From: Candidatus Binatus sp. | GTDB lineage: Bacteria > Desulfobacterota > Binatia > Binatales > Binataceae | Direction: 5' to 3' | Assembly (NCBI RefSeq): GCF_036567905.1 | Contig: NZ_DATCTO010000034.1 | Coordinates: forward strand, 10,085-74,084 | DNA length: 64,000 nt | Translations under genes and position numbers: made by a program | The notes under the pieces: generated by a model | The model's input: only the letters and a program-made list of their open reading frames with translations | Told to the model about the DNA's origin: nothing | The model's database searches: none | Shown here: positions 15,084 through 61,251 of the stretch, piece after piece | How the letters are laid out: every line of letters begins with the position of its first letter | How positions within the stretch are numbered: position 1 is the first letter of the stretch

Positions 15084-15085
15084 CG

Positions 15086-24537: not shown

Positions 24538-24614
24538 CACGGGATAGTAGACCGCGAAACAGCGGCGTCGCGCAATTTCCCGAAGTCGAGTCCCCTCGCG
24601 CATCTAACAGGTCA

Positions 24615-27455: not shown

Positions 27456-27530
<75 letters not shown>

Positions 27531-30719: not shown

Positions 30720-30721
30720 CG

Positions 30722-32014: not shown

Positions 32015-32016
32015 CA

Positions 32017-34102: not shown

Positions 34103-34885
34103 TCACGCGGTACTTCGAAGTGGTCGCGGCCATTGCCAGCAGGACAAAGTCCAGCCGCGTCCTTCGACCGCAAGAGCAGCTACGTAGCCGGATGCGAGGG
34201 TCAACTCCTTCAAAGACCAACGACCGGCTTCGTCTGAATCTGGCTGGGTGCTTAACAACGCTGCAGGTTTTCCGGGAATGAGCGACACGTCGAACTGATC
34301 CAAAGGCAAAGAGAGTCCTTCGCCTCTCGCCTTGATGTAGGCTTCCTTGCGGGTCCAACAGAGGAAGAACGCGTATCTCTGCAAGTCTGTCGGGAGCGCA
34401 CGGAGTGTCGCAATCTCGTTGCGCGAGAAAAAACGCTCAGCGATCTGCTCGACTTCCAAATCGCAGCGAATGAATTCAAGGTCGATGCCGATCCCGCGAC
34501 CACGAGTAACCGCATAGAGGGCCACTCCGCGAGAGTGAGACATGTTAAAGCGGATAGCATCTCCGCCAGAGTCCCGGCTCAATGCGGGCTTTCCATAAGA
34601 ACTGTAACCGAAGGATAGGCATTTCGGTTCTCTATTCAAGTAGAAACCGAGTATAGCCCTAAGTACTCCGTGAGCGTTGATAAAGCGCTCGCGGTCCGTC
34701 CGAAAGTAAAACCGCTGGGCCCTCGTTTGCTCTTCTGCCGCAAGGGTATGCAGGAAGCTATCGCGCTGCGGCGGGAGCTCGTCCAGAAAGGCCCGCCAGA
34801 CATGTACTTCGTTACTACCTAATCTTATCGTCGCCGGTGGGAACCCCCACGGTGTGGGAGTTGAGGTGATGGGTAGTGTCTTCAT
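34103..34885 (-). CDS. Sfp-type 4'-phosphopantetheinyl transferase
   Basis: YGKPAL, FNMSHS, GIDLE, WTRKEAYIKARG motifs. Confidence 0.9.
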   Translation of the reverse strand: MKTLPITSTPTPWGFPPATIRLGSNEVHVWRAFLDELPPQRDSFLHTLAAEEQTRAQRFYFRTDRERFINAHGVLRAILGFYLNREPKCLSFGYSSYGKPALSRDSGGDAIRFNMSHSRGVALYAVTRGRGIGIDLEFIRCDLEVEQIAERFFSRNEIATLRALPTDLQRYAFFLCWTRKEAYIKARGEGLSLPLDQFDVSLIPGKPAALLSTQPDSDEAGRWSLKELTLASGYVAALAVEGRGWTLSCWQWPRPLRSTA

Positions 34886-34904
34886 GTGGACGTTCGTACC
34901 GGCT

Positions 34905-35657
34905 TTATTGCAGCTGCTGAAAAAGCGCCCGAAGCAGAAGAGGCTGTTTCAAAAAGAAATGGTCGCCGGGAAACATCCGCAGCGAGAACGAAACACTCGT
35001 CTGGGCGCGCCAGGCTTCAAGATCGCTGTCGCTCACCTTGTTATCCTGCAAGCCGCCAAATGCGGAAATGGGACAGTTCAGGGGCGGCTCAGTCGAGTAC
35101 AGGTAGGTTTCGTACACCGCAAAGTCTGCCCGTAAGACAGGAAGCATGATTTCCATTAATTCCTCGTGGCCCAAAAGCTCGCTGGGCGTGCCATTCAGCC
35201 GCCGCAGCTCCATTAAAAACTCGCTATCTGGCAGGGTATGGATAAACGGCCCGCGATGAGGGATTTGAGGAGCACGACCAGCAGATACAAATAGGTGAAC
35301 AGGATGCACGCCGTACTGTCTTCGGATCCGGCGAGCGAGCTCAAAACTGACTAATGCTCCGAGGCTGTGGCCGAAGAAGGCAAAAGGCCTGTCCAGGAGT
35401 GGAGCCAGGGCTTGAGCGAGGGCCTCGACCAGAGGCGAGAGGTGAGTGAAAGGACGCTCCGTCATCCGAGTCCCCCGTCCCGGGAGTTGAAGTGGGCATA
35501 CCTCGACATCCGCCGGCAAATTGTCGGACCAGGTGCGAAAGATCAACGCGCCGGCTCCGGCGTAAGGGAAACAAAACAAGCGAAGGCGCGTCTTTGGCCC
35601 GAGTTTACGGTGTGAAATCCAGGGGTCGAAAGCAGCGGCGGTTGTCGAGCGGCTCAT
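34905..35657 (-). CDS. type II (editing) thioesterase
   Basis: RLFCFPYAGAGA...GHSLGALVSFELA... Confidence 0.9.
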   Translation of the reverse strand: MSRSTTAAAFDPWISHRKLGPKTRLRLFCFPYAGAGALIFRTWSDNLPADVEVCPLQLPGRGTRMTERPFTHLSPLVEALAQALAPLLDRPFAFFGHSLGALVSFELARRIRRQYGVHPVHLFVSAGRAPQIPHRGPFIHTLPDSEFLMELRRLNGTPSELLGHEELMEIMLPVLRADFAVYETYLYSTEPPLNCPISAFGGLQDNKVSDSDLEAWRAQTSVSFSLRMFPGDHFFLKQPLLLRALFQQLQ

Positions 35658-35691
35658 TCAAAAGCTGTCCTTACAAAGTAGCACATCCAAG

Positions 35692-35931
35692 TTAACTCTT
35701 TGATGAATGGCGCTGTTTGTCGCGCTGCTCCATTTGTTCTCTCAGACTTAGCGGTCTCATGTCGGTCCACACTTCCTTAATATAAGCCAGGCATTCGGTC
35801 TTGGAACCGGTCTTGCCTGTGACCGTCCAGCCAAGAGGAACTTTCCTTTCGGAGGGCCAGATAGAGTACTGCTCTTCATGATTGACGACGACTCTGTATG
35901 TTGCCGAGTCTTCCCAGCCGTCACTATTCAT
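35692..35931 (-). CDS. MbtH-like protein
   Basis: ATG 35931 overlaps the NRPS stop (ATGA). [24 protein letters not shown]. Confidence 0.9.
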
Positions 35932-38900
35932 ATTGCATCCTTCATTGACCTTATCGGTGGATTGGCCCCATCGGCAAACCATCCTTCAGTCGCTTGCGCC
36001 TGATCGAGGCAAGCCCGTAGCTTCTCAGCCAACACTTCAACGTGAGGCTTGTAAACCATCGTTGCGTGATTACCCGGAACGATATGAACGTCAACTCCTC
36101 CAGCAGCCCAGTCGCTCCAACCCAAGGCCGGGTCTGACGAGGTTCCCGCAAGCTCCTGACCAGCCTTGAAGAGCGTGATTCGACCTGGGTAGCGATGCAG
36201 TGCGTAGTTCTGGGTGGCTCGAAAATCGGCTTTGCAGAGTTCGATGAATGGCTGAGCTTGGGAAACGTCGATATCCGAGGGCATTAGTCCGGCTCTTTTT
36301 GCGTGCTCGAGGACGCGCTCCAGCAGTTCGTGCTTTGGAAGGCGGGCGAGAGAATCGCGAAGGTCGAGCGAAAGACCGAAATAGCGGACAAAATCGATCA
36401 GCAGGCGCGCGTCAAAGTCCTCATCGTCGAGCTCCTCATCGGCAGTTGGGATCCGAGTATCCAGTAAGGCTAACAAAGCTACCGTCTGACCCTGAGCCTG
36501 AAACTGCTGAGCCATCTCGAGAGCTACGACGCCTCCCATGGACCATCCGCCCAAAAGATAGGGACCCCACGGCTGCACCGTCCGTAGCGCTTCGATGTAA
36601 TAAGCGGCCATGTCTTCGATGCGCGCGTGTGGTTCCTGCCCCTCCTCGAGTCCTCTTGCTTGTAGGCCATAAGAAGGCTGGTTGGACCCTAGGTAGTGCG
36701 CCAAGTGAACATAGGGGAAGACATGTCCACCGGCCGGATGTATCAAGAAGAAGGGCCGCCTGTTACCTCCCGGTTGAATAGCCACCAAAGATGAATGCGG
36801 CGGAACTTTGGCGTGCTGGTGGAGAATCTTCGCTAGATGCTCAACGGTTGCTCCCTGAAATACAGTGGCTAAGGGAACTTTCTTGCCCAGTCTCTTTTCT
36901 ATCAATGAGAACAAACGAACGGCTGCAAGGGAGTGTCCTCCCAGCTCAAAGAAATTGTCCGTCACGCCGATGGGCCTGATACCCAAAACCTCTTCCCACA
37001 GACTAGTGAGCTGGCGTTCCAAAGCGTTGCGCGGCGCTACGAACGACCTTCCCGGTTCAAAGCGTGCTCGCCCGGGCTCCGGCAGGGCGCTGCGGTTTAC
37101 CTTCCCGTTGCGCATCAAGGGCAAAGCACCGAGCGGCACGAAGACCGCCGGCATCATATAGTTGGGCAGCCTCTCCTTCAGAAAGACCCGCAGCTCGCTA
37201 GCCGTTGGCGGGGATTCCCCCTCGGCGACCACGTAGGCCACCAGCTTCTTCTCTCCGGGAGCATTTTCCCAAGCCAAGACAACAGTCTCGCGCACGGCAG
37301 GGTGTTGGCGAAGCGCTGCCTCGATCTCCCCGAGTTCGATACGGAACCCGCGAATCTTCACCTGATCATCAATTCGACCCAAAAACTCGATATTTCCGTC
37401 GAAAAGATAGCGGGCGAGATCCCCCGTCTTGTACAGTCGCGTTCCCGGCTCGCTGCTGAAGGGGTTAGGTACGAAATTCCGCGCAGTCAAATCGGGCCGC
37501 TTGAGATAACCTCGAGCCAGGCAGTCACCGCCAATATACAGTTCACCGGGAACTCCAACGGGAACCGGATCACCGTACTTGTTCAAAATATAGGTCTCCC
37601 GGTTCGTGAGGGGACGGCCGATGGGAATCCTATGGAGAGCCGAGGGCTCGCGAAGCCGTGAAGCGACCTCAAAGGCAGTTGCCGTAATGGTGGTCTCCGT
37701 CGGCCCGTAGGCATTGATTAGACGGATTGAACTCATCGGTGTTCGCTGCCATAAGTCGAGGAACTCGGGCAGCATCGTATCTCCACCGACGATGAAAACC
37801 CTGGGCTGAATATTTGGAACTAACTCCGAGACGTCTGCCCACTCTCTGGCCAATTCTTGCCAATAGCCGGTTGGGATATTGAGCACAGTGAGTCCGCACT
37901 CAGAACTCACTTTGTAAAAAGCCGTAGTACGCCATACGTCGGTAGTCATCATAACCAGGGTAGCGCCGACAATCAGGGTAGGCAGCATTTGCTCCAATGA
38001 TACATCGAAACTCAGTGAGGCAAACTGCAGCACCTTATCGCTTGAATCCAGCTCGTAGTACCGTTGAACACTAAGGCAGTGCGCCGCGATCGAAGCATGC
38101 GAAACGAGGACTCCCTTTGGCTGGCCGGTCGACCCTGAGGTATAGATTACATAAGCCAGATTCTCGGGCGTGGTTAAGCAGACCGGGTTTTCTTTACTCC
38201 TCTGGGTGATAACCTCCGAATCTGAATCCAGACAGACCACCTTTGCATGGTGTTCAGGCAATCCCACCAGCAACGCCTCCCGGGTGAGGATTACAGGGAC
38301 CTCGGCGTCTTCCAACATGAAAGCGAGCCGTTCCTTCGGATACGCTGGATCCAGCGGCAGGTAGACGCCGCCCGCCTTTAGAATGCCGAGCAGTCCAACG
38401 ACCATCTCCACGGATGGCTTGAGGCAGATTGCCACCGGTAACTCAGGGCGCACTCCCAGAAGGCGTAGATGATTCGCCAGTTGATTGGCCCGGCGGTTCA
38501 GTTCGTCGTACGTCAGCTGCTGATTCTCAAGTACTAACGCTGTCGCGTCAGGTGTTCGCGCGACCTGCGCCTCAAACAGTTGATGGATACACAGCCCTTT
38601 CGGACAATCAGCCCTGTTATCGTTCCAGTCCACCAGTAGTTGTTGTCGCTCTGTTTCGGTTATTAGGGGCAGGTCCGAGACGCGTCGCTCGGGAGTAGCG
38701 GCCACGGCCTCCAGTAGAGTCCTAAAACAACCAAGCATACGTGTAATAGTGACAGCCTCAAAGAGGTCCGTATTATATGCTAATGTACCGACTAGACCTT
38801 GATCGGTGTCCACGATATGCATGGTTAGGTCAAAGTGAGTCGTACCGGTGTCCACTTCTACTGGGCTCAGGCTCAATCCCGGCAGTTCCACCGGCTGCAG

Positions 38901-41900
38901 CGAGGCATTCTGCAGTACGAACATCACCTGGAAGAGCGGGTTGCGGCTTAAATCTCTCGTCGGGTGCAATTCCTCTACCAGCCTCTCAAAGGGCAGGTCC
39001 TGATGGGCATACGCTCCCAGACACACTTCACGTACCCGGCGTAATAGATTCCGGAAAGTGGGATTGTCGGAGAAGTCAGTGCGCAGAACAAGCGTGTTTA
39101 CGAAAAAGCCTATTAGGCCTTCGATCTCCAGGCGGTTACGGTTGGCGGTTGGCGTTCCTACAACGACGTCGTCTTGATCCGTGTATCCGTGCAACAAAAG
39201 TTGGAATGCCGCCAGTAGGGTCATGAACAAAGTAACCCCTTCCTGGCGACTTAACGCCTTCAACGCATCGCCCAAGGCCTTAGGCAATAGAATAGCTTGG
39301 TGCGCACCGTGAAAGGTCTGTAGAGCCGGCCTCGGATGGTCCGTGAGGACCTCGAGCAGCGGAGGCGCGCCAAGCAATTGGTGCTTCCAATAGGCAAGCT
39401 GAGTGTCCAGGACCTCGTCCTGCAACCAAATTCTCTGCCAATGAGCAAAATCTGCATATTGGATGGGTAGCTCAGGCAGCGATGCGGGCCTATCGGAACA
39501 AAAGGCATCGTAGAGTACCGCCATCTCCCGGATCAGGATTCCGGTTGACCACCCGTCGGAAACGATATGGTGCATCGTCAGCAGCCCGACGTGCTCGGCT
39601 TCACCCAGCCGGAGCACTGTAGCCCGCACGAGCGGACCTTCGGCCAAATCGAAGGGCCGCCGCGCCTCGTTGGTCGCAAGCCGCTGGACCTCGCTCTCCC
39701 GCTCGGGCTCAGGCAGCTCTCGCAAATCTACTATCGGCAGCGTCAACGATAGAAGCGGTGCGATAACCTGAACCGGGCGACCATCCACAATGGCAAAGGT
39801 CGTTCGCAGGGCTTCATGGCGCTTCACGATTTCGTCGAGACTTTGCTTCAGCGCCGCCATGTTGAGTGGTCCCTTGAGACGGACGGCGGCAGGGAAATTA
39901 TAGACAGAGCCGCCCGGCTCGAGCTGATCGATGAACCATAGCCGCTGTTGTGCAAAGGACAGAGGTAGTTCCCCGTCCCGAGGAACAGGCACGATGGGGG
40001 AAGCCAGTAGTCCTGCTCCGCAGCCTACATCAATGCTTTCAGCCAGGCCGGCAACGGTGGGCGCTTCGAACAGGCGGCGCAGCGGCATCTCCACCTGGAA
40101 GGCTTCGCGGATTCGGGAAACGACCTGGGTAGCCAACAGCGAGTGCCCACCTAGCTGAAAAAAGTTATCGTAGATGCCCACCCGTTCGACGCTCAGGACC
40201 TGGCTCCATATCGTGGCGAGCAGCTCTTCCGTAGGCGTGCGACATGCCACGAATACCTGGTCCAGCTCGGGCCGCCGGTCATCGGGTGTCGGCAGTGCGC
40301 GGCGGTTTACCTTACCGTTAGCGGTCAGCGGGAAGGCGTCCAGTAGCACGAAGACCGCTGGCACCATGTGCTCGGGCAGCTTGTCCTTTAGAAAACTGCG
40401 CAGCTCGCTGGCGGTGGGACGTGACTCTCGCTCGGCGACTACATAGGCCACCAGCCGTTTCGCTCCGGCCCCAACTTCCTGAGCCTGTACAATAGCCTGC
40501 AGCACGGCCGGGTGCTGTCCGAGTGTCCCCTCGATTTCGCCAGGCTCGATTCGGAACCCGCGGATCTTGACCTGATGATCGCTACGACCCAGGAACTCGA
40601 TGTTTCCGTCCGGCCGGTAGAGCGCGAGGTCCCCGGTCTTATACAGCCGCGCTCCCGGCTGCCCGCTGAAGGGATCTGGAATAAACTTCTCAGCGGTCAA
40701 ATCAGGGCGCCTGACATAGCCTCGCGCCATGCCCACGCCGCCGATGTACAAGTTACCCGCGACGCCGATCGGAAGCAGGCGAAGCAGGTCATCTAAAATA
40801 TATGCTTGTGCGTTCGGTATAGGTCGTCCGATAGGAGCTGCACAATCAGGGCTGTATTCTTCGCACGGCCAATATGTAGAATCGATGATTGTCTCAGTCG
40901 GCCCATACACATTGTACAGCTTCGCCCCAACGCGGCTTTGGAGCCGCGTGACGATCTGGGGCGCCAACGCCTCACCGCCGCACATCACAGCGCGCAGGGC
41001 GAGGCTTTCGTCGAAGGCGGGCTCCTCAACCAGAAGCCGGAGAAGCGATGGCACGCAGTGAAGAATTGAGATTCGCTCGCTGCGGATGGTGTCTGCCAGG
41101 TATCGGCTATCACGATGACCGCCAGGTTCCGCAACTATCAGGGTTCCTCCCGCCAACAGCGTCGCGAGCAATTCGCGTCCAGCGGCATCGAAGGTGATGG
41201 GAGTCTTCAAAAGACAGCGGTCGCTGGATGACAGCTCCAGTGTCTCCATTATCCAGTTGACAGCATTAGTCAGTCCGCCGTGTTCGACCATTACTCCCTT
41301 CGGCTGTCCGGTCGAACCTGAAGTGTAAATCACGTACGCGAGGCTTTTGGCGGTTGCGTTAGCCTGCGGGATGTTTTCGCCATGCCTGGCGATGGTTTCC
41401 CAGTCCGAATCCACGCACACCACCGCGATTCCAAGCTCCGGCATAATGTTCCGCAGAGTTTTCTGAGTCAGCAGCACCTGCGCGCGAGCATCTTCCATCA
41501 CGTAGGCTATGCGCTCTTTGGGATACTCCGGATCCAACGGCACGTAAGCTCCGCCCGCCTTAAGAATGCCAAGGATCCCCACGACCATCTCCAGCGAACG
41601 GTCCATGCAGATTGCGACTGGAACTTCCGCTCCGACACCGAGACCTTGCAGGTGATACGCAAGTTGATTGGCGCGAGCCTCGAGTTCAGCGTAGGTCAAA
41701 CGGCGGTTCTGAAAAACGAGCGCTACATTCTCTGGCTGTTGCCGGGCCCGTTGCGCGAAGAGCTCGTGGATACACTTGCTTTCAGGGTAGTCGGTTCGCC
41801 TATCGTTGAACTCAACCAGCAGCTGGCGCTGCTCGTCGGGGCTCACGATATCCAGATCTGCGATTGGCGATTCCGGATTTGCGCAGACACTCTCGAGCAG

Positions 41901-43196
41901 AGTGCGGAACTCTTGCGCCAGGCGGTCGACATCCTCCGCGCTAAAAAAGCTGGAATCGTAGTGAAGCTCCGCGACCAGAAGGCCCCCTCGCTGCGGGCAG
42001 GAGAGTTTCAACTTGAACCGGTCAAAACAGCTGTATTGCTTCTGAATGGAAAATATCGTGGCGCCCTCGGTATGATTCGCGTCCGCATCCTGGAATTCAA
42101 AAGCTACCGGAAAGAAGCGGCACGGCTCGATTTCGGCATCCAATCGAGTAAGTTGTTCAGAGTCGAAATACTCCTGCCATTCAACGGCTTCTCGCGCCGA
42201 TCTATTAGTCCGTTCCAGAACTTCACTGAACCGAAGCTGCTCTTCGAGCTGGAATTGAACAGGCAAAGTCTTTGCAAACGGGCCCAGCGCTTCCTGCAGC
42301 CCTTCGTAAGTACGCCCATCGCACGCCAAGCCGACCACAAAGTCTGATTCGCCAGTGAGACGCCAGAGCAGGATTTGCCAACAAGCCAGGAAGAACGCAG
42401 AGGCCGAAGCATCATACCTGGCCACGAGCTTTTTAATCTTCGGGGTCAACTCAAGATTGACCGGCGACGCCAGAATCCGGGGCTCGAAGGCCGCCCTTGC
42501 GGAAGGTCGCTTTTCGAAAGAAAACTTCGGAACGCGGAAAGCTGAGCCGTCCGCTTCGCGCCAGTGTTTATTTCCTTCGTGCGTTTCTTCCGATTCCAAC
42601 AAGTTATTTTCCCACTCGGCGAGATCGGCATATTGACTGGGGTCGCCTGATGGTTCCTCGCAACGTACGAAACCGGAATAGCGGCGGCTAATCTCACGCA
42701 CCAGAATCCTGAGCGATGCCGCATCCGCACACAGCGATGGCAGATTGACGAGCAACATGTGCCGGTCGGCCGCAAGGGTCAGCAAAGAGATGCGCAGAAC
42801 CGGACCGTTCGCAAGGTCGAAGGGAATCCGGCCAACCTTCTCAAACAGCGCCTCGATTTCCGCCTCTTGGCGTGAGGTGTCCCGGTTGCTCAAGTTGCAT
42901 TCCTCTATCCAGGGCGCACTTTGCTCGTTCACCGCCTGGAGAGGAATGTTTGTTCCCTGCGGACAACGAAAGCCGGTTCGGAGGATCTCGTACCGGTCGG
43001 AGATGTCCCGCAGGACAGCCTTTAGAACCTGCAGGTTGAGGCTGCCCTCGATGAGGACGGCGCATTGCGCACGATACGGCAGTTGGTCGCCGGCCTGCTG
43101 CAGTGACCACAGATGCCTCTGCTGAGGTGAAAGCCGGAACCCTTCGATCACGTCCATTTGCATTCGAGTAATTCTACTTTCGCGCGACGGCTTCAA
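35928..43196 (-). CDS. bimodular NRPS: C*(non-canonical)-A-T-C-A-T-TE
   Basis: 2422 aa, counted by hand. C* spans about aa 15-455 (nt 43154-41832), with [12 protein letters not shown] where HHxxxDG is expected. A1 is aa 475-975 (41774-40272; [28 protein letters not shown]-like, GKVNR). T1 is GGHS(1019)L. C2 is aa 1075-1510 (39974-38667; [10 protein letters not shown]). A2 is aa 1535-2040 (38594-37077). T2 is GGHS(2089)L. TE is aa 2145-2400 (36764-35997; GGWS(2219)MGG). Confidence 0.95.
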
Positions 43197-44757
43197 TGCT
43201 CGGTTGCGACGGTATGAGGTTCTTGCGCTTGACGTGTTTCAGTTTTTGAAGATTAACTTCCTGCTGCTCCTTGCGGACAGCAACCCGTTGCTGCCGGTCC
43301 GCTGCGGCGAGCGTTAGCTTGAGTGCGTCCAGTCTGGTGGTCGGTTCTTGAAGTATGCGGCGCAGAAGTATTTCGAAATGCTGCGACATGCGGGCAATCG
43401 TCGCGTTATCAAACAGGTCGCTGTTGTAGCGCATCGAGGCGGAAAGCGATTCGGGCGTTTCGATTATCAACAACACCAGGTCGAGAGTGGCGGCGCGGCG
43501 TTCGAGCGCCACCGACTCCATAACAAGTCCCCCGGAATTCATGCGCAGCCCTGTTTCGGCCGCCAGAAATGGAGACGCGCCCTGTTGCGCGATCCGGTGG
43601 GGCTTGTCGAGCACGAACATCACCTGGCACAGAGGTGGGCGGCTGAGTTCGCGGGGCGGCCGTAGGCGCTCAACCAATAGAACGGTAGGGTAATCCTGAT
43701 GCTCGAGAGCCGCCAGCACATTGAGGCGAACCTGGCCAAGAAATACCCCGAACGCAGGGTTCCCGGAAAGATTCGCCCTTAAGACTACGGGGTTCGTAAA
43801 GAGGCCGACTATACCTTCGAACTCCGCCCGGCTCCTACCCACCATAGGAGTTCCCACCAATAGGTCTTCCTGGCCGCTATTGTAAGAAAGCACCACCTGG
43901 AACGCTGCCAGAAGCACCATGTACAGCGTCGCTCCATGAGCCTTGGCGAGAGCCTTGAGCCCGGAGCTCAGCTCCGCGTCCATAGTGAAGTCGTGCGATG
44001 CCCCCTGATAAGTCGGAACCGCCGGACGCGGCCGATCGGTCGGAAGGTCCAGGATGGGCAGCTGGCCGGCCAGTTGCTCGCGCCAGTATGCCCATAGCCG
44101 CTCTCCATCCGGGCCTGCCAGCATCTCGGCCTGCCAACGGACATAGTCAGTGTATTGCAGATCAAGAGGAGGCAGATGCGCTTTCACACCGGCGCTTTCC
44201 GCCGGGTATAGGACGCCGAGTTCATCCAAAAGTATCGCGAGAGACCAGAAGTCGATCGCTATGTGATGCACGACCAGCAGAAGGATATGTTCCCGCGCCG
44301 AGCGCATGATCAGGCTCACGCGCAGCAACGGCCCTCGTTCCAGATCAAACGGGCGATACGCTTCCTCGAGCAGCCGGGCGTTCAGTTCGTCGCCGCTCCA
44401 GGCCGAGCCATCCACTTCCTCGAGGCTAACCTTCAGGTGTTCGTGGACCTGCTGGGCCGGTTTGCCGGAGTGTGCGGGAAAAGTAGTGCGCAGCGAAGGA
44501 TGGCGATCGACCAACCTCTGCAACGCGCGTCGCAGTGCCGCAACATTTACGCCGGACGAGATACGTGCCGCAAAATTGACGTTGTAAACCGCGCTATCCG
44601 GCGCCAGTTGATAAAGAAACCAAATGCCCTGCTGATTGTACGAGAGAGGATAAAGTGATTTGGAGTCGCGCGCCTGCTTGCGAAGAAGCTCGGCAAGGAG
44701 CGCCCGCTTTTCGCCCGGTGAAAGATCGGTGATTCGCCTGGAAGTGCTGCTATTCAC
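43174..44757 (-). CDS. free-standing condensation (C) domain protein
   Basis: 527 aa; LSYNQQGIWFLYQ..., active-site HHIAIDFWS (aa 164-172) and a C-terminal charged helical tail. It overlaps the PKS stop by 4 nt and the NRPS start by 23 nt. Confidence 0.9.
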   Translation of the reverse strand: MNSSTSRRITDLSPGEKRALLAELLRKQARDSKSLYPLSYNQQGIWFLYQLAPDSAVYNVNFAARISSGVNVAALRRALQRLVDRHPSLRTTFPAHSGKPAQQVHEHLKVSLEEVDGSAWSGDELNARLLEEAYRPFDLERGPLLRVSLIMRSAREHILLLVVHHIAIDFWSLAILLDELGVLYPAESAGVKAHLPPLDLQYTDYVRWQAEMLAGPDGERLWAYWREQLAGQLPILDLPTDRPRPAVPTYQGASHDFTMDAELSSGLKALAKAHGATLYMVLLAAFQVVLSYNSGQEDLLVGTPMVGRSRAEFEGIVGLFTNPVVLRANLSGNPAFGVFLGQVRLNVLAALEHQDYPTVLLVERLRPPRELSRPPLCQVMFVLDKPHRIAQQGASPFLAAETGLRMNSGGLVMESVALERRAATLDLVLLIIETPESLSASMRYNSDLFDNATIARMSQHFEILLRRILQEPTTRLDALKLTLAAADRQQRVAVRKEQQEVNLQKLKHVKRKNLIPSQPSIEAVARK

Positions 44758-47700
44758 TTTCCACCGACTTCCTCTTTAGCCAATAGATCAGCGAGCAACG
44801 AATTCACTTCCTCATCCGAATACTGGTCGAGATTATCCAACAGATGCTCATCGACGCCGCCGTTTCCTTGCTGCCCCTGGAGGTGGCCATTTGCCGAGGC
44901 AAGAGCAGCTGATGAGTCAGGAGTCTCAGATGTAAGCAGATGAAGCAGTTGCGACGCAGCCTGTTCGACGCTGGGTCCCGAGAGAAACGTAACCATCGGC
45001 ACGTTCACGCCCAGCTCCACCGCGATCCGGTTCTTCAACTCGACCGCCATCAAGGAGTCCAGTCCCAGATTGCTGAGCGGTTGCTCTAGGTCCAGCCTGG
45101 ATGCGGGCAACCCAAGCACACGAGCCACCAGCTCAGTCAGATGGGACCGGATTAATTGAAGGCGTTCCGCCGGCTCTGCGGCAAGGATCGTATTTCGCTT
45201 CTCGGCGGAATGACCCGCTTGGGGCGAGTTGTCTGCTTCCTCACGTGCGAGCTCAGAAAGCAGCGGTGGTTGTGTTCCCGCAGGAAAAAACTGGCGATAG
45301 AGCGCCCAGTCAACGGGTACGGCCGCGACCTGGGTCGAGCCTTGACGAAGCAGGCGTTCCATCACGTCCAGCGCTTGTGCGGGTGCGATGCTCCTGATTC
45401 CCGCCAGCGCGAGGCGCGCGGCAAGGCGTTTTCCTCCCGCAGTTTCCGCGAAGCCCAATCCGCTCCATGCTCCCCAGTTGATGCTCAGCGCCGGTTTGCC
45501 TAGCGCCCGTCGATGATGAGCCAGTGCGTCGAGGAAGGCGTTTGCCGCCGCGTAGTTCCCCTGGCCAGGCTGGCCTAAGAGGGAACCGGCGGACGAAAAA
45601 AGTACAAAGAAGTCCAAGGGGTCGTCTTTGAGGAGTCGATCCAGCAGCCAGCCGCCGATCATCTTGGGCCGCATGACCGAATCCATTGCCGCCGTATCGA
45701 GTTGCGCCAGCAGTCCGTCCTGCAATACTCCCGCCGCGTGCACTACGCCTCGGATCGGCGGCCAACCCTCGGCTCGAAACTCATCTATGTAGGCGCGTAA
45801 CTGTCCTTCATCAGCCACGTCCACCGAGGCCAGATGCACGCTCGCTCCCAAAGCTTCCAGCTCGCGAATCGCGGCAATTTGATGGGCCAGGCGGCTTCCC
45901 GGTTCCGCTGAGTTCCATCGCGCGCGCGGTGGAAGCCTGGTGCGTCCCATAAGGATCAGCCGGCGCGCCCCTTGCTCTACCATCCAGCGGGCGACCGAAA
46001 GGCCCAGGTCTCCGAGCCCTCCGGTGATCAAGTAGCTGCAGTCAGCGCGCCAGCCAAGTGGAGCGCGCTGCGTGGCGCAACGAGGTTTGCGGATCAAGCG
46101 GGCTGCGTGTCGCCGACCTTGCCGGAACGCAATCTGATCCTCGCCGTCCGGAGCGGAGATTTCTTTCCACAACTGATGAGCGGCATCGCCGGGAACCGAA
46201 GGCCTGGGTTCCAGGTCCATCAGACCTCCCCAGAACATGGGATGCTCCTGAGCGACAACGCGACCCAATCCCCAAAGAGGCGATTGAGCCGTGTCCAGGG
46301 GCAAGGTCTCTTCCCCCGCCGGCTGTGCGCCGCGTGTGATCAGCCACAGGCGGGGTAAGTTACTGCGTTCGACCCGAGCCAGCTCCTGCACTAACTGTAA
46401 TACACTGTTACAGCCAAGAGTCTGAACTGTCTTCAGCGAAGCGACGGTAGAGTCCTGTGGAAGGGACGCATCAAGGCTCCAGAGATGCACAACCGCCCGG
46501 CAGATCGGCTGATCCTGCGCCAATGCCGCATCGAGAAGCTGTCGCATGTCCTGCGGTCGTTCGGCATTGATGCGAAAATGCTCGCCGTCCGTGCGCTCGT
46601 ACGATTCGCCGCGCGTGACAACGATGATGTTGTCTCCTTGCGCCTTGATCAGTGCTCCAAGCTTTTCTCCGACGCCGCTGCTGTCGGCAAAGATAAGCCA
46701 GTTGCCCGGGCTGGCGGGCGCGGACGGTTCCGGGGCCGGCTGCTCATTCGAACGCTCTCTTGGCTGCCACTGAAATTCGTAGAGCCAGTCGTCAATATTC
46801 TCATCGGCGCCGCGCTTTGGATCGCGGCCGATGCTATCGAAGCGCAGTCCTACAATTTCGACCGCAACATGGCCAGTTTCATCCAGGAGCCGCACGTCTC
46901 CCTTGACGCTGCCGGCGTCGGGTTCTTGCAGATGGGCGTGACTCCAGAGATGCAAAGCCGGAGCACCATGGACCCGAATCTCATCTATATGAGTGGGCAT
47001 GTAGGCGCCCTGTTCGTCGTTTTCCGCCGCTTGAGCGGCTACACCCGCTCCTAGGGTCTGAAAGCAAGCGTCCAAGAGGGCAGGGTGGAATTGACAGGCG
47101 TCGAACTCTCGATGCGATCCATCGGGGACTTGCACTTCACCGAGCATTTCACCATTGCATCGCCACAACTGAGTAATGCTCTGGAAAGACGGGCCATAGG
47201 CGACGCCACTTTCGCCAAGCCTGAGGTAGTAGTCTTGTCCTGAGATCTGTTCCGAGCATCGAGCCTGGACTTGAGCCGGCGCTTCGGGTTCGATAACCGA
47301 GGCAATGCCGGGGGCCGGCTCAGGACAAATCTTTGCCGTCGCATGTAGCGTCCACGATCGATTGGCTTGCTCCGCGTCGCGCGGGCAACTGTAGATATGA
47401 AGGGATGCGGCGGCGTCGGCGCCGGGAGAGAGGATCACCTGAAGGGTCAGAGTTGCGCCGTCGGGGACGAAGAGCGCTTTGCGGAATTCCACATCTTTCA
47501 GCACAAAGGACTGCGACGGGAACGCCTCAGCCGCGGCCTCCAACGCCATCTCGACATAGAGCGCGGCGGGAAGCACCGCGAGTCCTTCGACGCGATGGTC
47601 ATCCAGGTAGGACAGCGCGCTTCTGTTCAGAGCGCTCTCCCAGAAGTGGGTTTCGGTCTGCGCGGATTTGAAATGCCGGCCGAGAAGAGAATGCTTCGCG

Positions 47701-50700
47701 GCTCCATCGCTCGAGACGTACTGCAATCGACCGCGGATATCTCCCGCCGGCGGGTCCATCCAACAACGCTCCCGATCCCATGGATAGGACGGAAGCTGAA
47801 CGGATCGGCCCGGTGTAGGATAGATGCGGCTCCACTCGATCGGATAACCCGAGGTATAAAGGGCGCCCAGCGACCCGGCTAATACTTTAGCTTCTTCTTC
47901 CTCGTGCCTTAGCGACGGGATTACCGCGCCTTCTATCCCGGCGCGGCGAAATTCCTGCTGAATGCTACTGAGTAGAATGGGATGCGGACTGAGCTCCAGA
48001 AAAATGTCATGTCCGTCTTTCAGCAAGCGCTGAACCGCAGTTGAAAAGAGGACCGGTTCTCTGAGGTTGCGGCTCCAATAGGGCGGGTCGAAGCTCAAGC
48101 CGTCGGCAAGCTGGCCGGTTACCGTAGAGTAGATCGGCAGCGGAGCGGGCCGAGGCTGTAGTCCTTCCAGCGCGCGCTCCAGGTCAGCGCGCAGAGGCTC
48201 CATCTGCGGACTATGAGCGGCAAAATCAACCTTGATTATTCGGCAGAAGATGTCCTGGCGCTGCAATCGACTCACGATGGTTTCGAGCGCTGCGGGATCT
48301 CCCGACAAGACCGTCGAAGTGGGACCGTTGCTGACCGCGATCGATACGCGATCTTCGAAGCCGGCAATGGCGCGCCGAGCGTCCGCGATGGAAAGGTCCA
48401 CCGCAGCCATCGCTCCGCGCCCAATCGCCGGCTTGACGAGTAGGCTGCGGCTGCATATCACCCGCGCCGCATCTTCGAGGCTTAGCGCGCCGGCGACGTG
48501 AGCGGCCGCGACCTCGCCCATGCTGTGACCCACCACCGCGTGCGGCACGATACCCCGGGAACGCCACAGGGCCGCAAGCGCCACCTGAATCGCAAACAAA
48601 GCCGGCTGCAGGACGTCGACTTCGGTCAGCCGGGAGCGGGCCGCATCGGTGGCGGAGAGTTCCGCAAGCAAGGACCAGTCTCCGTGGGGGCGCATCGCGA
48701 GGTCACAGCGTTCGATGGCTTCGGCAAAGGCGGCGTCATGCTGCAAGAGCGCCCGTCCCATCCCAAGCCATTGGGAACCTTGCCCGGGAAATACAAAGAC
48801 CAGTTTTCTCTGGCGATCGGAAAGCTTGCGGCCCGAAGACAGCCCGGGACAAAGCTCTCCGCGGGCATAAGTCTCAAGCGCATCGGCCAATTGCGATGTT
48901 GAATTGCCGGTCGCGGCGAGCCGGTACTCGTGATGACTTCGCCGCGTGCCAGCCGCGTAACAAATGTCGTAGGGCGGCGCCGTCAACTGCGGATCGATCA
49001 GGAAGTCGTGATAGCTTCGCGCGAGCGCCTGCAGCGCCGGCGCGCTGCGTGCCGACAAGGGCAGCAGGTAGGTGGACGCGGCATCGCGGGTTCCGTTCTC
49101 GCGTTGCGCAGCACGCATTTCCGAATCGAGGGTAGGAGCCGCTTGCATGACCACATGGGCGTTGGTTCCACCAAAGCCGAATGAGCTGACTCCGGCGAGC
49201 AGGGCTATATCCGGCTGCGCAGGCCATGGGCACAGCGCCGTGTTCACGCGCAGCGGGAGTCGATCGAAAGGAATATGAGGATTGGGCTCCTCGAAGTGCA
49301 GGCTTGGTGGAATCTCCCGATGGTGAAGCGCCAGCGCCACCTTGATTAATCCAGCGATACCGGCTGCGGCCTCGAGATGACCCAGGTTGGTTTTGACCGA
49401 GCCAAGGAGACATGGGCGGTCAGGAGGACGATCGAGAGCTAGCACCGCGCCCAAGGCCTTAGCCTCGATAGGATCGCCCAGGAGCGTGCCGGTGCCATGG
49501 GCCTCGACGTATTGAACATCGCCGGGCGAGACCGCGGCGCGCCTATAGGCTTCTCGCAGCACAGCTTCCTGCGCTTGAGGATTAGGAGCCATGAGTCCGT
49601 TGCTGCGTCCGTCCTGATTCATAGCACTGCCGAGAATGACGGCGTAGATCGGATCGCGATCGGCCAAGGCTTTCGATAGCGGTTTGAGGACGACGACTCC
49701 GGCGCCCTCGCTGCGGACGTAGCCGTTGGCGCGCGCGTCGAAGGCTTTGCAGCGCCCGTCGGGCGCCATCGCACCGGCCTTGCTGAAATTGATCGTAATT
49801 GCAGGCGACAGGATCAGGTTCACGCCGCCGGCCAATGCCAGAGTTGACTCTCCGCTTCTCAGGCTGTTGCAGGCTTGGTGGACCGCGACGAGTGACGATG
49901 AGCAGGCAGTGTCGAGCGCAATGCTGGGTCCGCGGAAATCGAATACGTAAGAGATACGGTTGGCCGCGATACTCAGGGCATTGCCCGTGCCGGCATAGGC
50001 GTCAATACGATCCAGGTCATTGAATTGAATCCGGCCGTAATCGTTGTTCGAGATGCCGATGAACACACCGGTGGGCGTGCCCGCAAGGCGCTCACGCACC
50101 TGTCCCGCGTCTTCCAGCGCTTCCCATGTCAACTCGAGTAGCAGGCGTTGCTGGGGATCCATGCGCGCGGCTTCTCGCGGCGAGATACCAAAGAAGCGCG
50201 CATCGAACTGATCGACGTGCTCGAGAAAACCACCCCAGCGCGTGATAATTTTGCCCGGGACCGCGGGATCAGGATCGTAAAAATCGTGCAGGTCGAAGCG
50301 ATCCGCGGGAACTTCCCGGATCGCATCGACTGCGTTGCGAAGCAGATTCCAGAAAGCTCGCGCGTCCGCTGCGCCAGGAAAGCGGCAGCCTATCCCGATG
50401 ATGGCGATCGCTTCGGCATTGGCCTCCCGAACCCGGCTCGCTTCGGCGGCCGGCGGCGACGGGCTCGACGAGTCCGCCAAACCGCGGGCGAGAGCTTCGA
50501 TGGTCGGAAACTCATATGCCAACTCGGCGGGCAGGTCTCGTCCCAGCCATTGCGCAAGGTCGCCGGAGAGACTGACCAACTCCGTCGATCCCAGTCCGTA
50601 GCTGGCGAATGGTTCCCCGACGTCGATCTCGTTCGCTCCGATTTCCAGCAGCTCGGAAAGTTTGGACACCAGCCAGGCCTGGATCGCCGCCGCGCCGGGT

Positions 50701-50780
50701 GTGGGATTGCCTTGCTCGCGCTGCCCATCGCGTTCCGCGTCATGCCGGATGGCGCCGTTAGTTTGATTTCCGGCCATCAC
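44754..50780 (-). CDS. type I PKS module: ACP-KS-AT-DH-KR-ACP
   Basis: 2008 aa, counted by hand. ACP1 is aa 31-101 (YGLGS). KS is aa 122-548 (DTAC(293)SSS, EAH(428)GTGT, NLGH(468)LE). AT is aa 660-950 (GHS(753)MGE; VDFAAHS). DH is aa 1030-1315 (H(1062)[24 protein letters not shown]). KR is aa 1355-1775 ([12 protein letters not shown] at the LDD position, SSAGS...Y(1743)AAAN). ACP2 is LGLDS(1909)L. There is an acidic C-terminal docking-like tail, and no ER or MT. Confidence 0.95.
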
Positions 50781-52603
50781 TCACTCTTCGCGCACTGTTC
50801 CAGCGTCCCGTTCCGAAACCTGGCCTCGCAAACACGGCGCTGAACCTTGCCGCTGGGGGTCTTGGGAATGTCGCCAGCCCTCAATAGTACGACCGCATGC
50901 ACTCGCACGTCATGCTCTTCTGCCACTGCGCGGCGAATGGCCCGGCTCACCGCGTCGAGATCCGCCGGAGACCGCCCGTTCGGATGGCTCGCGTGTGATC
51001 TGTCGTGCGATTCGCCGTTAGACTGGTGGCGCTCCGATTGGTAGTGGCGCTCCATTTCGGCGGCGATGATCAAACGCTCCTCGTCGGCGACATCGACCGA
51101 AAACGCCACACAACAACCCGGCCGCACTGCCGTATGGCTTTGCTCGACGGTCAATTCGATGTCGTGTGGGTAAAGGTTGCGACCGCCGATGATGATCAGA
51201 TCCTTCAGCCGGCCGGTGACAAATAGCTCACCGTCTCTCAAGAATCCCAGGTCTCCGGTGCGAAGAAACGGCCCTTCACCAGTATCTGCCAGGTAGGCGT
51301 GGAAGATGAGTTCTGTTTCCTCAAGCCGGTTCCAATAGCCCCGGGCCACGCTCGGGGCGGACACCCAGATTTCGCCCAGCTCATCAGGTGCACAGGCAGT
51401 CGATGATTCAGGATGAACGATAACGATTTTCGTGTCCGGCATCGCGCGACCACATCCAACCCGCGTGCGGACGTTCAACTGCTGGTCGGAGGTCTCCACG
51501 ACGCCGTTGTGTTCAAGCGCCGTCGCCTGGGTCGTGCACAGGACGGGCGCATCTTCTACGACTCCGCCCGATACGATCAGCGTGGCTTCGGCGAGCCCAT
51601 AACAGGGATAGAAGAAGTTTGGGCGGAAGCCACAAGCTGCGAAGGCCGCGGCAAACCGTTTCAGGGTGTCCGCACGGACCGGCTCGGCGCCGTTGTACGC
51701 CACCTTCCAATTGCTGAGGTCCAGACCGTCGCACTGTTCCGGAGTAATCTTGCGAGCGCATATTTCGTACGCGAAATTCGGGCCTCCACTTACAGTGGCT
51801 TCATAGCGCGAAACCGCCTGAAGCCACCGTACCGGCCGCTGAAGAAAGGACTGCGGAGGCATGAGAACGCACCCACGTCCTCCATACAGTGGCTGGATAA
51901 TTCCATTGGTAAGTCCCATATCATGGAAAACCGGCAGCCATGTCACGGAGACAGTGTCCGACGTAATCTCGAAAGCTTGGCTGATGTGGGCCGAGTTCTC
52001 GATAAGATTCCCATGACTGACCATTACGCCCCTCGGTACAGCGGTGGAGCCCGAGGTGTATTGGAGCAAAGCGAGGGTATCGCTGGTCGCCCCAGGGTTT
52101 CGCCAGTCCTGCGCCGCACCGCTGGGAACCTTGTCGGTGGCCAACCACTGTATTGTCTGCAGTTCTGGAGCTTGCGCGAAAAGGCCCTCAATCTTGGCCA
52201 GGATCGATGACGTGGTCAGCGCCAGCATCGGTTGAGCATCGTTTGCGATGGTGCGAAGCCTCGGGAGAGTCCGCTGCGGCTGCGCCATATTCGGCGGGGG
52301 CGTCGGGACGGCAACAACCCCGGCATATAAACATCCAAAAAAAGCCGGGATGAACTCAAGACCCGCGGGATAGAGCAATAGGGCTCGCTCCCCGCTTGCT
52401 CGGTAGCTTTGGAGCAACGCACCAATAGTGCGTGCCTGCCGGTCCAAGGCCGCGAATGTCAAATTCGCTCCTTCGATCTCTCCGTCGGCCAGGTAAGTGT
52501 AGATCCGCTGCTCTGGCTGCTGGAGCGCCCGCCAACGAAGAAGTTCGACGAGAGTAGAAGCTTTGGCGGTAGTTCGACTCACCCCTAGCTGATTCGGTTG
52601 CAT
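50777..52603 (-). CDS. fatty acyl-AMP ligase (FAAL)
   Basis: 608 aa; STLVELLRWRALQQPEQRIYTYL...LTFAALD...LQYTSGST...GDLGFLRDGELFVTGRLKD. It overlaps the PKS start by 4 nt. Confidence 0.9.
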   Translation of the reverse strand: MQPNQLGVSRTTAKASTLVELLRWRALQQPEQRIYTYLADGEIEGANLTFAALDRQARTIGALLQSYRASGERALLLYPAGLEFIPAFFGCLYAGVVAVPTPPPNMAQPQRTLPRLRTIANDAQPMLALTTSSILAKIEGLFAQAPELQTIQWLATDKVPSGAAQDWRNPGATSDTLALLQYTSGSTAVPRGVMVSHGNLIENSAHISQAFEITSDTVSVTWLPVFHDMGLTNGIIQPLYGGRGCVLMPPQSFLQRPVRWLQAVSRYEATVSGGPNFAYEICARKITPEQCDGLDLSNWKVAYNGAEPVRADTLKRFAAAFAACGFRPNFFYPCYGLAEATLIVSGGVVEDAPVLCTTQATALEHNGVVETSDQQLNVRTRVGCGRAMPDTKIVIVHPESSTACAPDELGEIWVSAPSVARGYWNRLEETELIFHAYLADTGEGPFLRTGDLGFLRDGELFVTGRLKDLIIIGGRNLYPHDIELTVEQSHTAVRPGCCVAFSVDVADEERLIIAAEMERHYQSERHQSNGESHDRSHASHPNGRSPADLDAVSRAIRRAVAEEHDVRVHAVVLLRAGDIPKTPSGKVQRRVCEARFRNGTLEQCAKSE

Positions 52604-53073
52604 TAGCTAAGCGATATCCATGTTCATTAGAATTACCCGGTTGATCCACGCGGCCAGCGAAGTGCCGGCCTTGCCTTTCGGATCTTCAAGACTGCTTCGC
52701 TTCTGCGAGGAATTATTTATCGCAACTGAGGTTTTTTGGGAAACGAAACGTCGCTGAAGACATTGACTCGTGTTCTTTAGAGAACCAAATGGCGAAGCAA
52801 AAACGAAGACTTGCGGTTCGCTCCCTAAGCCGCCGCTGTCTCCAAAGGAATTCAGCGCTTTGGGTTCATCAAATACCTTTCCCGAGGCCCTATGCAGCGC
52901 TGACCCGATATCATCCGCGATTCGGACGCCCCAGCTTCGCGAAAAGCCGTTTCGCAGCCGCGGATGCCGTACCGTCCTTGCTCCGCTTGATGAGAGACTC
53001 AGTCGATCCCTAATATGGATCGTGGTAGATGGCGGGTTCATGCGTTGAGCATTGTCGCTCAGGGAGAAGTATC

Positions 53074-60650: not shown

Positions 60651-60704
60651 TTGGCAAGGCGGTTGATCCCGCGCCGCGCAGAACTTCTCAAGGGGACACC
60701 ATCA

Positions 60705-61133: not shown

Positions 61134-61251
61134 CAGGTTCAGATCGTCCTTCCAAAGCCGTCGGCCGCCGCCACGCCCGTCGCCCCCAACACGAAAATTG
61201 CGGCGCTGAGCAGACCGATCATGGTCGCGGTGGCGAGCGCCTCGACGCCCG

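Follow-up and report, generated by a model that had tools for sequence, protein, structure and literature searches.

Organization of the gene cluster

A 64,000-nucleotide (nt) stretch of DNA from Candidatus Binatus sp. (assembly GCF_036567905.1, contig NZ_DATCTO010000034.1, positions 10,085 to 74,084; hereafter the window, numbered from its first letter) contains a compact gene cluster in which a fatty acid-activating enzyme, a polyketide synthase and a nonribosomal peptide synthetase are combined into one assembly line. Seven co-directional genes on the minus strand (34103-52603, Table 1) encode one fatty acyl-AMP ligase (FAAL), one single-module type I polyketide synthase (PKS), a free-standing condensation domain (free C), a nonribosomal peptide synthetase (NRPS), an MbtH-like protein, a type II thioesterase (TEII) and a phosphopantetheinyl transferase (PPTase). 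An earlier note on this DNA, made by reading the letters, had proposed the same seven-gene operon. The positions of the open reading frames (ORFs), which are the same in both analyses, the order of the Pfam domains and the catalytic motifs all agree with it. The FAAL-primed hybrid PKS-NRPS line would probably yield an N-(2-methyl-2-alkenoyl)-Glu/Asp-Arg lipodipeptide.

The Pfam domain order (E-values 1e-20 to 1e-186) is FAAL; ACP-KS-AT-DH-KR-ACP; free C; C0-A-T-C-A-T-TE; MbtH; TEII; PPTase, where ACP is an acyl carrier protein, KS a ketosynthase, AT an acyltransferase, DH a dehydratase, KR a ketoreductase, A an adenylation domain, T a thiolation domain and TE a thioesterase domain. C0 denotes a condensation-like domain without the active-site histidines, and the condensation domain of the second NRPS module is called C2. 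The genes are closely packed. Overlaps of 4 nt join the FAAL to the PKS and the PKS to the free C, and gaps of 34 nt and 19 nt separate MbtH from TEII and TEII from the PPTase. When MbtH is started at M18 (coordinate 35931), its start codon forms a 4-nt ATGA overlap with the stop codon of the NRPS. The junctions listed in the earlier note therefore stand, with one restriction: the 23-nt overlap between the free C and the NRPS is found only if the TTG at 43196 is used as start codon. In public gene calls the identical NRPS gene starts at an ATG and encodes 2411 or 2409 amino acids (aa), so that about 10 or 16 nt would separate it from the free C.

Table 1. Features of the window discussed in the text. 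Domain boundaries within the PKS and the NRPS (C0 excepted) are approximate.
Feature	Position	Strand	Evidence
tRNA-Gly(CCC)	27456-27530	+	Rfam
LolA_like periplasmic protein	~28693-29460	+	Pfam
LolC/E-like FtsX permease, first	29457-30719	+	Pfam; NCBIfam lolCE 1e-34
LolC/E-like FtsX permease, second	30722-32014	+	Pfam; NCBIfam lolCE 1e-34
LolD-like ATPase	32017-32760	+	Pfam; NCBIfam LolD 7e-65
Conserved secreted hypothetical protein, ~324 aa from M91 of a long ORF	32774-33748	-	N-terminal hydrophobic segment, signal or anchor-like
PPTase, Sfp/HetI-type, 260 aa	34103-34885	-	Pfam ACPS 4.8e-20
TEII (editing), 250 aa	34905-35657	-	Pfam Thioesterase 1e-48; GHSLG
MbtH-like protein, 79 aa from M18	35692-35931 (ORF 35692-35982)	-	Pfam MbtH 1.4e-23
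NRPS, C0-A-T-C-A-T-TE	35928-43196	-	Pfam: two Condensation, two AMP-binding, two PP-binding, one Thioesterase
NRPS: TE	36012-36755	-	Pfam, motifs
NRPS: T2	36822-37013	-	Pfam, motifs
NRPS: A2	37071-38564	-	Pfam, motifs
NRPS: C2	38634-39974	-	Pfam, motifs
NRPS: T1	40038-40223	-	Pfam, motifs
NRPS: A1	40311-41759	-	Pfam, motifs
NRPS: C0, C-like domain without histidines, N-terminus	41802-43163	-	PSLCADA replaces HHxxxDG
Free C, 527 aa	43174-44757	-	Pfam Condensation 1e-104
PKS, single-module type I, 2008 aa	44754-50780	-	Pfam domains, motifs
PKS: ACP, C-terminal	44946-45155	-	Pfam
PKS: KR	45462-46703	-	Pfam
PKS: DH	46815-47693	-	Pfam
PKS: AT	47859-48800	-	Pfam
PKS: KS	49290-50414	-	Pfam
PKS: ACP, N-terminal	50466-50693	-	Pfam
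FAAL, 608 aa	50777-52603	-	Pfam AMP-binding 4.7e-59
Protein with four BON domains	53029-54117	+	
Second BON protein	56116-56517	+	
LTXXQ (Spy/CpxP-like) protein	57194-57835	-	
Deoxyhypusine synthase homologue	11200-12249	+	
Two tandem family III CoA-transferases	13878-16330	+	
SAM hydroxide adenosyltransferase (duf-62 type)	23707-24603	-	

The seven reading frames contain neither frameshifts nor internal stops (0 of each). All catalytic motifs that were checked are intact except in C0, where both histidines are missing. The motifs include HHIVSDG in C2, GWSMG in the TE, Asp235 and Lys517 in both A domains, the serine motif of the TEII given in Table 1, GIDLE and WTRKE in the PPTase and a motif of ten residues in MbtH. 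The PPTase matches the NCBIfam model HetI at 2e-67, which lies under the cut-off of that model.

A scan with one genome per species gave 98 relatives; 80 loci were retained (L001-L080), all in metagenome-assembled genomes (MAGs). Against 11 of the relatives, dN/dS is 0.08-0.38 over eight domains of the PKS, the free C and the NRPS. The operon is thus intact and under selection, and it is predicted to be functional, given its intact ORFs and motifs, the purifying selection and its retention in dozens of species-level genomes.

The same evidence makes it hardly credible that the cluster is a decaying or silent relic. What could be said for a relic is that no sigma-70-like promoter was recognised 5' of the FAAL, where the consensus scans for promoters and terminators did not exceed the level of shuffled sequence, that the operon contains no regulator and that the organism is uncultured. 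Against this stand the intact reading frames and catalytic motifs, strong purifying selection across the 11 relatives and the keeping of the cluster in those dozens of genomes. Few obvious Shine-Dalgarno sequences precede the cluster genes, and the transcription and translation signals of the host lineage may differ from the consensus used in the scans. An Rfam scan of 26-56 kb returned a tRNA alone, and the region upstream of the operon has no riboswitch. Among the scanned window ORFs near the operon, none was recognised as a regulator, a TonB-dependent receptor or a hydroxylase, in line with the earlier note, which had found no regulator inside it.

Loading and extension of the acyl chain

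The first enzyme is best assigned to the FAAL class, not to the named orthologues of any profile. Among NCBIfam models it scores highest with FAAL families (1e-134 with PRK05850, 1e-129 with FadD32), compared to about 1e-47 with acyl-CoA ligases, and the scores with FAAL profiles (1e-134 to 1e-100) are all under the equivalog cut-offs. The FAAL would adenylate a fatty acid and load it on the N-terminal ACP of the PKS, which was recognised from a Pfam PP-binding match and a GLGS motif read from the sequence. In the second ACP and in T1 and T2 the carrier serines were found.

The KS and AT would then extend the chain once. The KS carries the motifs DTACSSS, EAHGTG and KTNLGH, the AT carries GHSMGE, the DH shows HxxxGxxxxP, YGP and DxxxQ, and the KR shows a motif of ten residues together with YAAAN. 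The Cys-His-His set of the KS, the two DH motifs and the B-type LQD of the KR had all been read in the earlier note and are indeed present in the window. Across the family the B-type LxD motif of the KR is conserved as LQD, LHD or LRD. The first DH motif is kept in 51 of 54 relatives, and a regular expression for the second (DxxxQ/H) matched 10 of 54.

The extender unit is most likely methylmalonyl-CoA. When the AT is compared to solved structures, the best matches are DEBS AT3 (1e-81), the salinomycin methylmalonyl AT 6iyr (2e-78) and the ethylmalonyl AT 6iyt (1e-69). The malonyl AT 6iyo of the same salinomycin PKS (2e-49) and CurL (2e-51) match far less well, the methylmalonyl ATs leading the malonyl ones by about 30 orders of magnitude. 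The diagnostic AT motif, which is preceded by VDV[LI]QP, is FASH in 33 loci of the family and FAAH in 20, including the window. With an AT of probable methylmalonyl type, a 2-methyl-2-enoyl chain is likelier than an unbranched 2-enoyl one. Action of the B-type KR and of the DH would generate an (E)-2-methyl-2-enoyl thioester on the second ACP, so the predicted acyl chain is an (E)-2-methyl-2-enoyl fatty acyl group, or a plain 2-enoyl group if malonyl-CoA is used. The trans-2-enoyl chain after one extension that had been proposed in the earlier note thus keeps its single extension with KR and DH, and probably gains a 2-methyl branch.

It is unlikely that the PKS module acts iteratively to build a polyunsaturated (methyl-branched) polyenoyl chain, as polyene-forming single-module PKSs do elsewhere in lipopeptide pathways. 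The line does contain only one KS-AT-DH-KR-ACP module and no enoylreductase, and its lipid part is flexible, as some relatives have no FAAL-PKS or carry an ACP with a FabF-like KS. The dedicated FAAL and the N-terminal loading ACP, however, form the classic arrangement for a preformed long chain and a single extension, and FAAL and PKS are co-conserved in 42 loci. In FadD26/PpsA, a FAAL and a loading ACP likewise load a preformed long chain, which is then extended once.

The acyl supply varies within the family. Alphaproteobacterial relatives have, in place of the FAAL-PKS, a small stand-alone ACP and a FabF-like KS immediately upstream of the fused NRPS (L056 8395-9860; also L042, L061 and L071), and some Verrucomicrobiota relatives (L035, L036) have no acyl-activating gene or comparable unit upstream. 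With the FAAL-PKS swapped or missing in these relatives, the lipid-initiation part is modular, while the C-A-T-C-A-T-TE core is constant.

The free-standing condensation domain and the C0 domain

The acyl group would be moved in trans by the free C to the amino group of the first amino acid on T1. The motif HHIAID of the free C is intact, and the Gly of HHxxxDG has been substituted by Phe, a change also found in relatives. The nearest structures are LCL-type domains (Txo1/Txo2, 1e-85). An assignment as starter-type (Cs) domain was rejected, as the SrfA-A starter C reached only 5.5e-30 and RzmA gave no match at 1e-20 or better. The free C is therefore predicted to work like a lipoinitiation C domain, yet to be of the LCL/hybrid type by sequence.

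Two forms of this region occur in the family. In the split form (about 30 loci, including the window) the C domain is a separate gene and a C0 of about 1.4 kb lies between C and A1. In the fused form (about 35 loci) an orthologous C (60-70% identical, HHxxxD intact) is joined straight to A1 in a single ORF of 2454-2522 aa, as in L056 (9974-17338). The fused loci, which include Verrucomicrobiota, Alphaproteobacteria and several Acidobacteriota labels, are all without C0. Because its orthologue in these single-ORF relatives is the N-terminal C fused to A1, the free C is predicted to be the ancestral, functional acyl-transferring domain.

In C0 the histidines are absent from all relatives that carry the domain (30 of 30), and the motif [PS][SA][LF]CAD is found in nearly all of them. 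C0 retains the C-domain motifs C1, C2, C4 and C6, as read from the invariant positions, and an invariant Asp. Its dN/dS is 0.19-0.38, compared to 0.11-0.19 for the C2 domain and 0.15-0.23 for the free C, which points to a domain kept by selection under looser constraint. C0 is a clade-specific insertion, absent in about half of the relatives. MbtH is encoded in every locus with C0, and in a subset of the fused loci. The earlier note had read the NRPS as C*-A-T-C-A-T-TE, accompanied by a free C. This order is correct, but C* is predicted to be catalytically dead and is the lineage-specific insert that about half of the relatives lack.

Domains of the same kind are found outside the family. An exhaustive HMMER search was performed with C0; as the summed scores of multi-module NRPSs dominate its ranking, the results were filtered for N-terminal matches. 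In many large NRPSs the best match to C0 was at the extreme N-terminus. All 26 unrelated NRPSs that were inspected show a start motif of 16 residues and an LP[AS]LCAD-type sequence in place of HHxxxDG. The A domain follows directly after the C0-like domain in 24 of the 26, and a normal C comes first in the other two (P0241 and P0276). Further examples of these NRPSs (2.4-6 k aa) are P0244, P0253, P0257, P0282, P0285, P0355, P0365, P0366 and P0371. The features of the class are the N-terminal position, a start of 12 residues, [LP][PSA]x[LMI]C[AMS]D replacing HHxxxDG and an A domain that comes next, and C0 has all of them. C0 is thus placed, by these motifs, in a widespread class of N-terminal C-fold domains without histidines. 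A published name or function for such domains is not known to us.

C0 is probably non-catalytic and serves as a structural platform for A1, the first A domain; it may also provide a docking site for the trans-acting free C. That C0 is instead alive as a non-canonical lipoinitiation or modification domain, with the free C doing other work (off-loading to a soluble amine, or proofreading), is unlikely. Such a role would suit the purifying selection on C0, the retained motifs and invariant Asp, and the presence of the same domain type at the head of many large NRPSs, which implies that some function is required. Both histidines are missing, however, from the C0 of all 30 family members and from all 26 unrelated NRPSs inspected, the Cys close by varies, and about half of the family has no C0 and fuses an HH-bearing C to A1. 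A dehydrating CmodAA domain was tried for C0 and rejected: AmbE (2e-9) and McyA (2e-10) match far less well than the ordinary LCL domain of TycC (7e-32), the domain stands at the N-terminus, where no module precedes it, and the A1 code is not one for Ser or Thr.

Two observations concern the evolution of the NRPS gene. Compared to L005, L012 and L058, the C0 of the window (41802-43163) shows a dS of 1.2-1.7 and 51-56% identity, and the flanking domains show a dS of 0.3-0.8 and about 75-92% identity. This higher divergence of C0 suggests recombination within the NRPS gene. The TE of L001 is 57% identical to that of the window, compared to 80-91% for the other domains.

Amino acid specificity and the predicted product

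Stachelhaus codes were extracted by alignment to GrsA-PheA, for which the reference fragment returned the expected DAWTIAAICK, and were compared to the codes of characterised pathways (PMC12283262, Table S12). The code of A2, DVENIGAITK, is identical in 9 of 10 positions to the Arg code DAENIGAITK (AvCA_25570). The family variants DLEDLGAITK and DVENVGAITK likewise match the Arg codes DAEDLGAITK (VarF) and DVENVGAINK (LybB), respectively, in 9 of 10 positions. The consensus for Arg has been given as D-[AV]-E-D-[IVL]-G-A-[VI]-[TD]-K (PMC12283262). On these matches to characterised Arg domains, A2 can confidently be predicted to activate arginine.

For A1 an acidic substrate is predicted, with Glu as the best guess and Asp as the less likely choice. 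The code DARHMGVIDK is invariant in 43 loci. Its nearest codes are those for Glu (DAKDLGVVDK and DAWHFGGVDK) and Asp (DMKDLGMVDK), and the Arg at position 239 suits an acidic side chain. In Verrucomicrobiota and some Binatia loci an alternative code is found, DMKN[FL]GIANK, for which DMKDLGMVDK (Asp/beta-OH-Asp) is the nearest. No literature match was found for the exact codes. In one Acidobacteriota MAG (L041) the A1 code is Ser-like (DVWHISLVDK) and the A2 code Asn/Asp-like (DLTKFIEVCK), which points to amino-acid swapping within the family.

Taken together, the colinear route would proceed as follows. After loading and extension of the fatty acid, the free C would acylate the acidic amino acid on T1, where A1 probably needs MbtH as partner. 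C2 would then add the Arg from T2, and the TE would release the product, hydrolysis being the simplest mode. The TEII is expected to edit misprimed carriers, and the PPTase to activate the four carrier domains. The same sequence of steps (FAAL loading, one extension, N-acylation of the first amino acid, addition of the second and TE release) had been drawn in the earlier note, and the domain order and the intact motifs agree with it. Its N-(2-enoyl-acyl) dipeptide is retained as an acyl dipeptide, with residues that are now predicted to be an acidic one (Glu or Asp) and then Arg; the plain 2-enoyl chain has become less likely.

Several points weigh against this prediction. The cluster is known from genes alone, and all its relatives are MAGs or metagenome contigs. 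The code of A1 reaches at most 6 of 10 positions with any characterised code. The AT of the window shows FAAH and not the canonical YASH or FASH, which leaves the extender unit in doubt, and a lone PKS module could act iteratively. The LCL likeness of the free C is to be expected with a PKS ACP as donor and fits the relatives without a PKS less well. The role of C0 is read solely from its missing residues and from selection, and the release mode of the TE is not readable from the sequence.

Relation to characterised pathways

The mycobacterial glycopeptidolipid pathway comprises a FAAL, a single-module Pks, the NRPSs Mps1/Mps2 and an MbtH-like protein. The cluster resembles it, as well as FadD26-PpsA, in that the PKS receives a long fatty acid from a FAAL for one extension with beta-processing; in the glycopeptidolipid case a C domain then passes the chain to the NRPS and an MbtH partner is encoded alongside. 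The present line, however, would incorporate two amino acids, uses a TE instead of reductive release and has no epimerization domains and no glycosyl or methyl tailoring. It also has a free-standing C and the histidine-free C0 in front of A1. Its hosts are unrelated to mycobacteria, and the two systems are likened by their pathway logic.

A second comparison is offered by PvdL (PRK05691; PDB 9lcq), since FAAL and NRPS alike score best with PRK05691 among the NCBIfam profiles. In PvdL, a FAAL-like domain activates the acyl chain, which is then joined to Glu, the first residue, and the same acyl-onto-Glu chemistry is predicted here. PvdL differs in having no PKS and in its Glu code (DVWHFGRINK, compared to DARHMGVIDK here), and the profile score of 1846 is well below the cut-off of 4090. 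The cluster further lacks the Tyr and Dab modules and the pyoverdine maturation genes.

It is nonetheless very unlikely that the product is a lipopeptide siderophore or metallophore. The PvdL-type profile would fit this idea, as would the MbtH protein and the origin of the Arg codes that resemble A2 from siderophore synthetases (azotobactin, pyoverdine PvdI and variochelin). Yet the scanned window ORFs include no enzyme for forming a hydroxamate, a catecholate or hydroxy-Asp and no TonB-dependent receptor, the PRK05691 score is far under its cut-off, and an acidic residue with Arg offers no obvious chelating set.

The predicted lipodipeptide can further be compared to corallorazine, an N-acylated dipeptide with a 2-enoyl-type chain that is formed by a bimodular NRPS and whose cluster family (crz) has been described as widespread (PMC11342130). 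The crz NRPS is built as Cstarter-A(Ser)-T-CmodAA-A(Gly)-nMT plus T-TD; its acyl genes (crz3-6) provide the chain by means of acyl-CoA dehydrogenases, a ligase and an ACP, and the product is released reductively (PMC11342130). Both systems would make a lipodipeptide with a bimodular NRPS, but crz contains no PKS, FAAL or TE and uses other amino acids. Membership in the corallorazine family was rejected on account of the differing domain order, amino acids and release domain.

For C0, the closest conceptual counterpart is the X-domain of glycopeptide synthetases, a condensation fold without catalysis that is kept for scaffolding or recruiting (PMC10510592). C0 matches the X-domain of Tcp12 (4tx2) at 3e-21, compared to 7e-32 for an ordinary LCL domain. 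The X-domain is C-terminal and recruits P450s, whereas C0 is N-terminal and no P450 is present.

Searches of the literature on biosynthetic gene clusters of Binatia and Acidobacteria, on lipodipeptides and on FAAL-PKS-NRPS lines found no characterised relative. A tblastn search of plasmids returned no family member; the best matches were C domains of 45-52% identity in unrelated cyanobacterial or Methylocystis clusters. Both searches accord with the statement of the earlier note that the architecture matches no characterised pathway. The cluster is, in sum, an intact but uncharacterised case of a well-known type of assembly line. For a specialist in assembly-line enzymology it holds nothing surprising; the system is standard in kind, and what makes it notable is its wide distribution, not its architecture.

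Distribution and horizontal transfer

Public data contain at least 1,394 homologues of the free C. Their 120 top clusters are 69-99% identical to it and come nearly all from metagenomes or MAGs. Their source names are 'condensation domain-containing' or 'hypothetical' only, save for one evidently mislabelled entry.

The 80 loci are labelled 'uncultured delta proteobacterium', Candidatus Binatia/Binataceae/Binatus, Acidobacteriota (Terriglobia, Acidiferrales, Edaphobacter), Verrucomicrobiota and Alphaproteobacteria (Acetobacteraceae, Stellaceae, Rhodospirillales, Sphingomicrobium). The nearest are L001 (91%), which also shares the BON-domain gene beside the FAAL, and Candidatus Binatus soli (88%). 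Three Logan assemblies (SRR2029815 to SRR2029817) contain the identical protein. When each domain of the window was compared to the loci by tblastn, the complete FAAL-PKS-C-NRPS-TEII set was found in 42 of the 80, many of the remaining loci being cut by contig ends. The median amino-acid identity across the loci is 57-82% per domain, and identities of 60-90% are reached across labels from several phyla. These identities argue both for a function under selection and for horizontal spread.

The composition of the window is consistent with such a spread. The GC content at third codon positions (GC3) is 0.54-0.69 in the cluster and the adjoining transporter genes, compared to mostly 0.7-0.8 in the flank genes, and the overall GC content is 0.58 in this region compared to 0.61-0.62 in the flanks. 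The left edge of the low-GC3 region coincides exactly with a tRNA-Gly(CCC) gene. The 3' end of this tRNA has no (att-like) repeat in the rest of the window, and no integrase match was obtained with the ORFs scanned in the low-GC3 region. The low GC and GC3, the tRNA at the edge and the high identity across phylum labels together suggest horizontal transfer of the cluster. Mis-binning of MAGs could still be a source of the phylum spread; several family loci on contigs of at least 1 Mb count against it.

The family is among the more widely shared NRPS-PKS clusters of uncultured soil and peat bacteria. Its value lies in natural-product discovery and ecology, and the understanding of assembly lines is left unchanged. 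A small acyl-Glu/Asp-Arg compound, as predicted, would be within reach of chemical synthesis, with no need to culture the producers. The split (C and C0) and fused forms of the C domain amount to a natural experiment on the non-catalytic N-terminal C-like domains that head many large NRPSs. The wide spread of phylum labels and the split and fused forms make the cluster a worthwhile target for synthesis or expression.

Putative exporter and genomic neighborhood

A Lol-like set of four genes (28693-32760, plus strand) converges on the operon. With its LolA_like protein, two FtsX/MacB-type permeases and LolD-like ATPase, it resembles LolCDE/LolA and the MacB-type exporters, and MacB-type pumps flank many lipopeptide clusters. 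An identity as the housekeeping LolCDE was rejected, since lolCE scored 119 against a 362-bit cut-off and LolD 219 against a 308-bit cut-off. With scores so far under the equivalog cut-offs, the set is taken to be a paralogue of the housekeeping machinery. Neither a membrane-fusion nor an outer-membrane component was seen beside it.

The ATPase is syntenic with the NRPS at 54-94% identity, and so is the adjacent (second) permease at about 65-77% (42% in one locus), in loci labelled Binatia, Verrucomicrobiota, Acidobacteriota and Alphaproteobacteria. The Lol-like set is therefore counted as part of the functional unit, as the ABC system that probably exports the lipopeptide.

Between the PPTase and the ATPase lies a gene for a conserved secreted hypothetical protein. 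It has 304 homologues; those listed show 70-99% identity and a length of mostly about 290-345 aa, and the sole organism names among them are Candidatus Binataceae. Neither a Pfam or NCBIfam match nor an informative homologue name was found for it, and its AlphaFold model (pLDDT 41, from an alignment of 16 sequences) is too low in confidence for use. The gene is located next to the PPTase in 19 loci, mostly with Binatia-type labels. As the exporter is syntenic under four phylum labels and the secreted protein in the closer relatives, the functional unit is predicted to exceed the seven genes of the operon and to comprise the exporter, plus the secreted protein in those closer relatives.

A bolder reading, which we consider rather unlikely, takes the whole unit of about 25 kb (assembly line, Lol-like ABC extractor, LolA-like carrier and secreted protein) as a horizontally mobile module for an envelope lipid. 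The acyl-Glu/Asp-Arg compound would then not be a secreted antibiotic but an envelope or surface lipid with its own Lol-type route, by which diderm soil bacteria of several phyla would deliver it to their outer membrane or surface, and C0-type domains would be general scaffolds through which NRPS initiation modules recruit trans-acting partners.

On the other side of the operon, the gene for a protein with four BON domains is divergent from the FAAL; it is also adjacent in L001 and L073. Together with the second BON protein and the LTXXQ (Spy/CpxP-like) protein that follow (Table 1), it looks like a small envelope-stress group adjoining the cluster. At 60651-63512 lie prophage-like regulators, namely an HTH_3 protein, a Mor-family activator and a CI-like repressor that carries an S24 peptidase domain. 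The left flank of the window carries the deoxyhypusine synthase homologue, the tandem CoA-transferases and the SAM hydroxide adenosyltransferase listed in Table 1.

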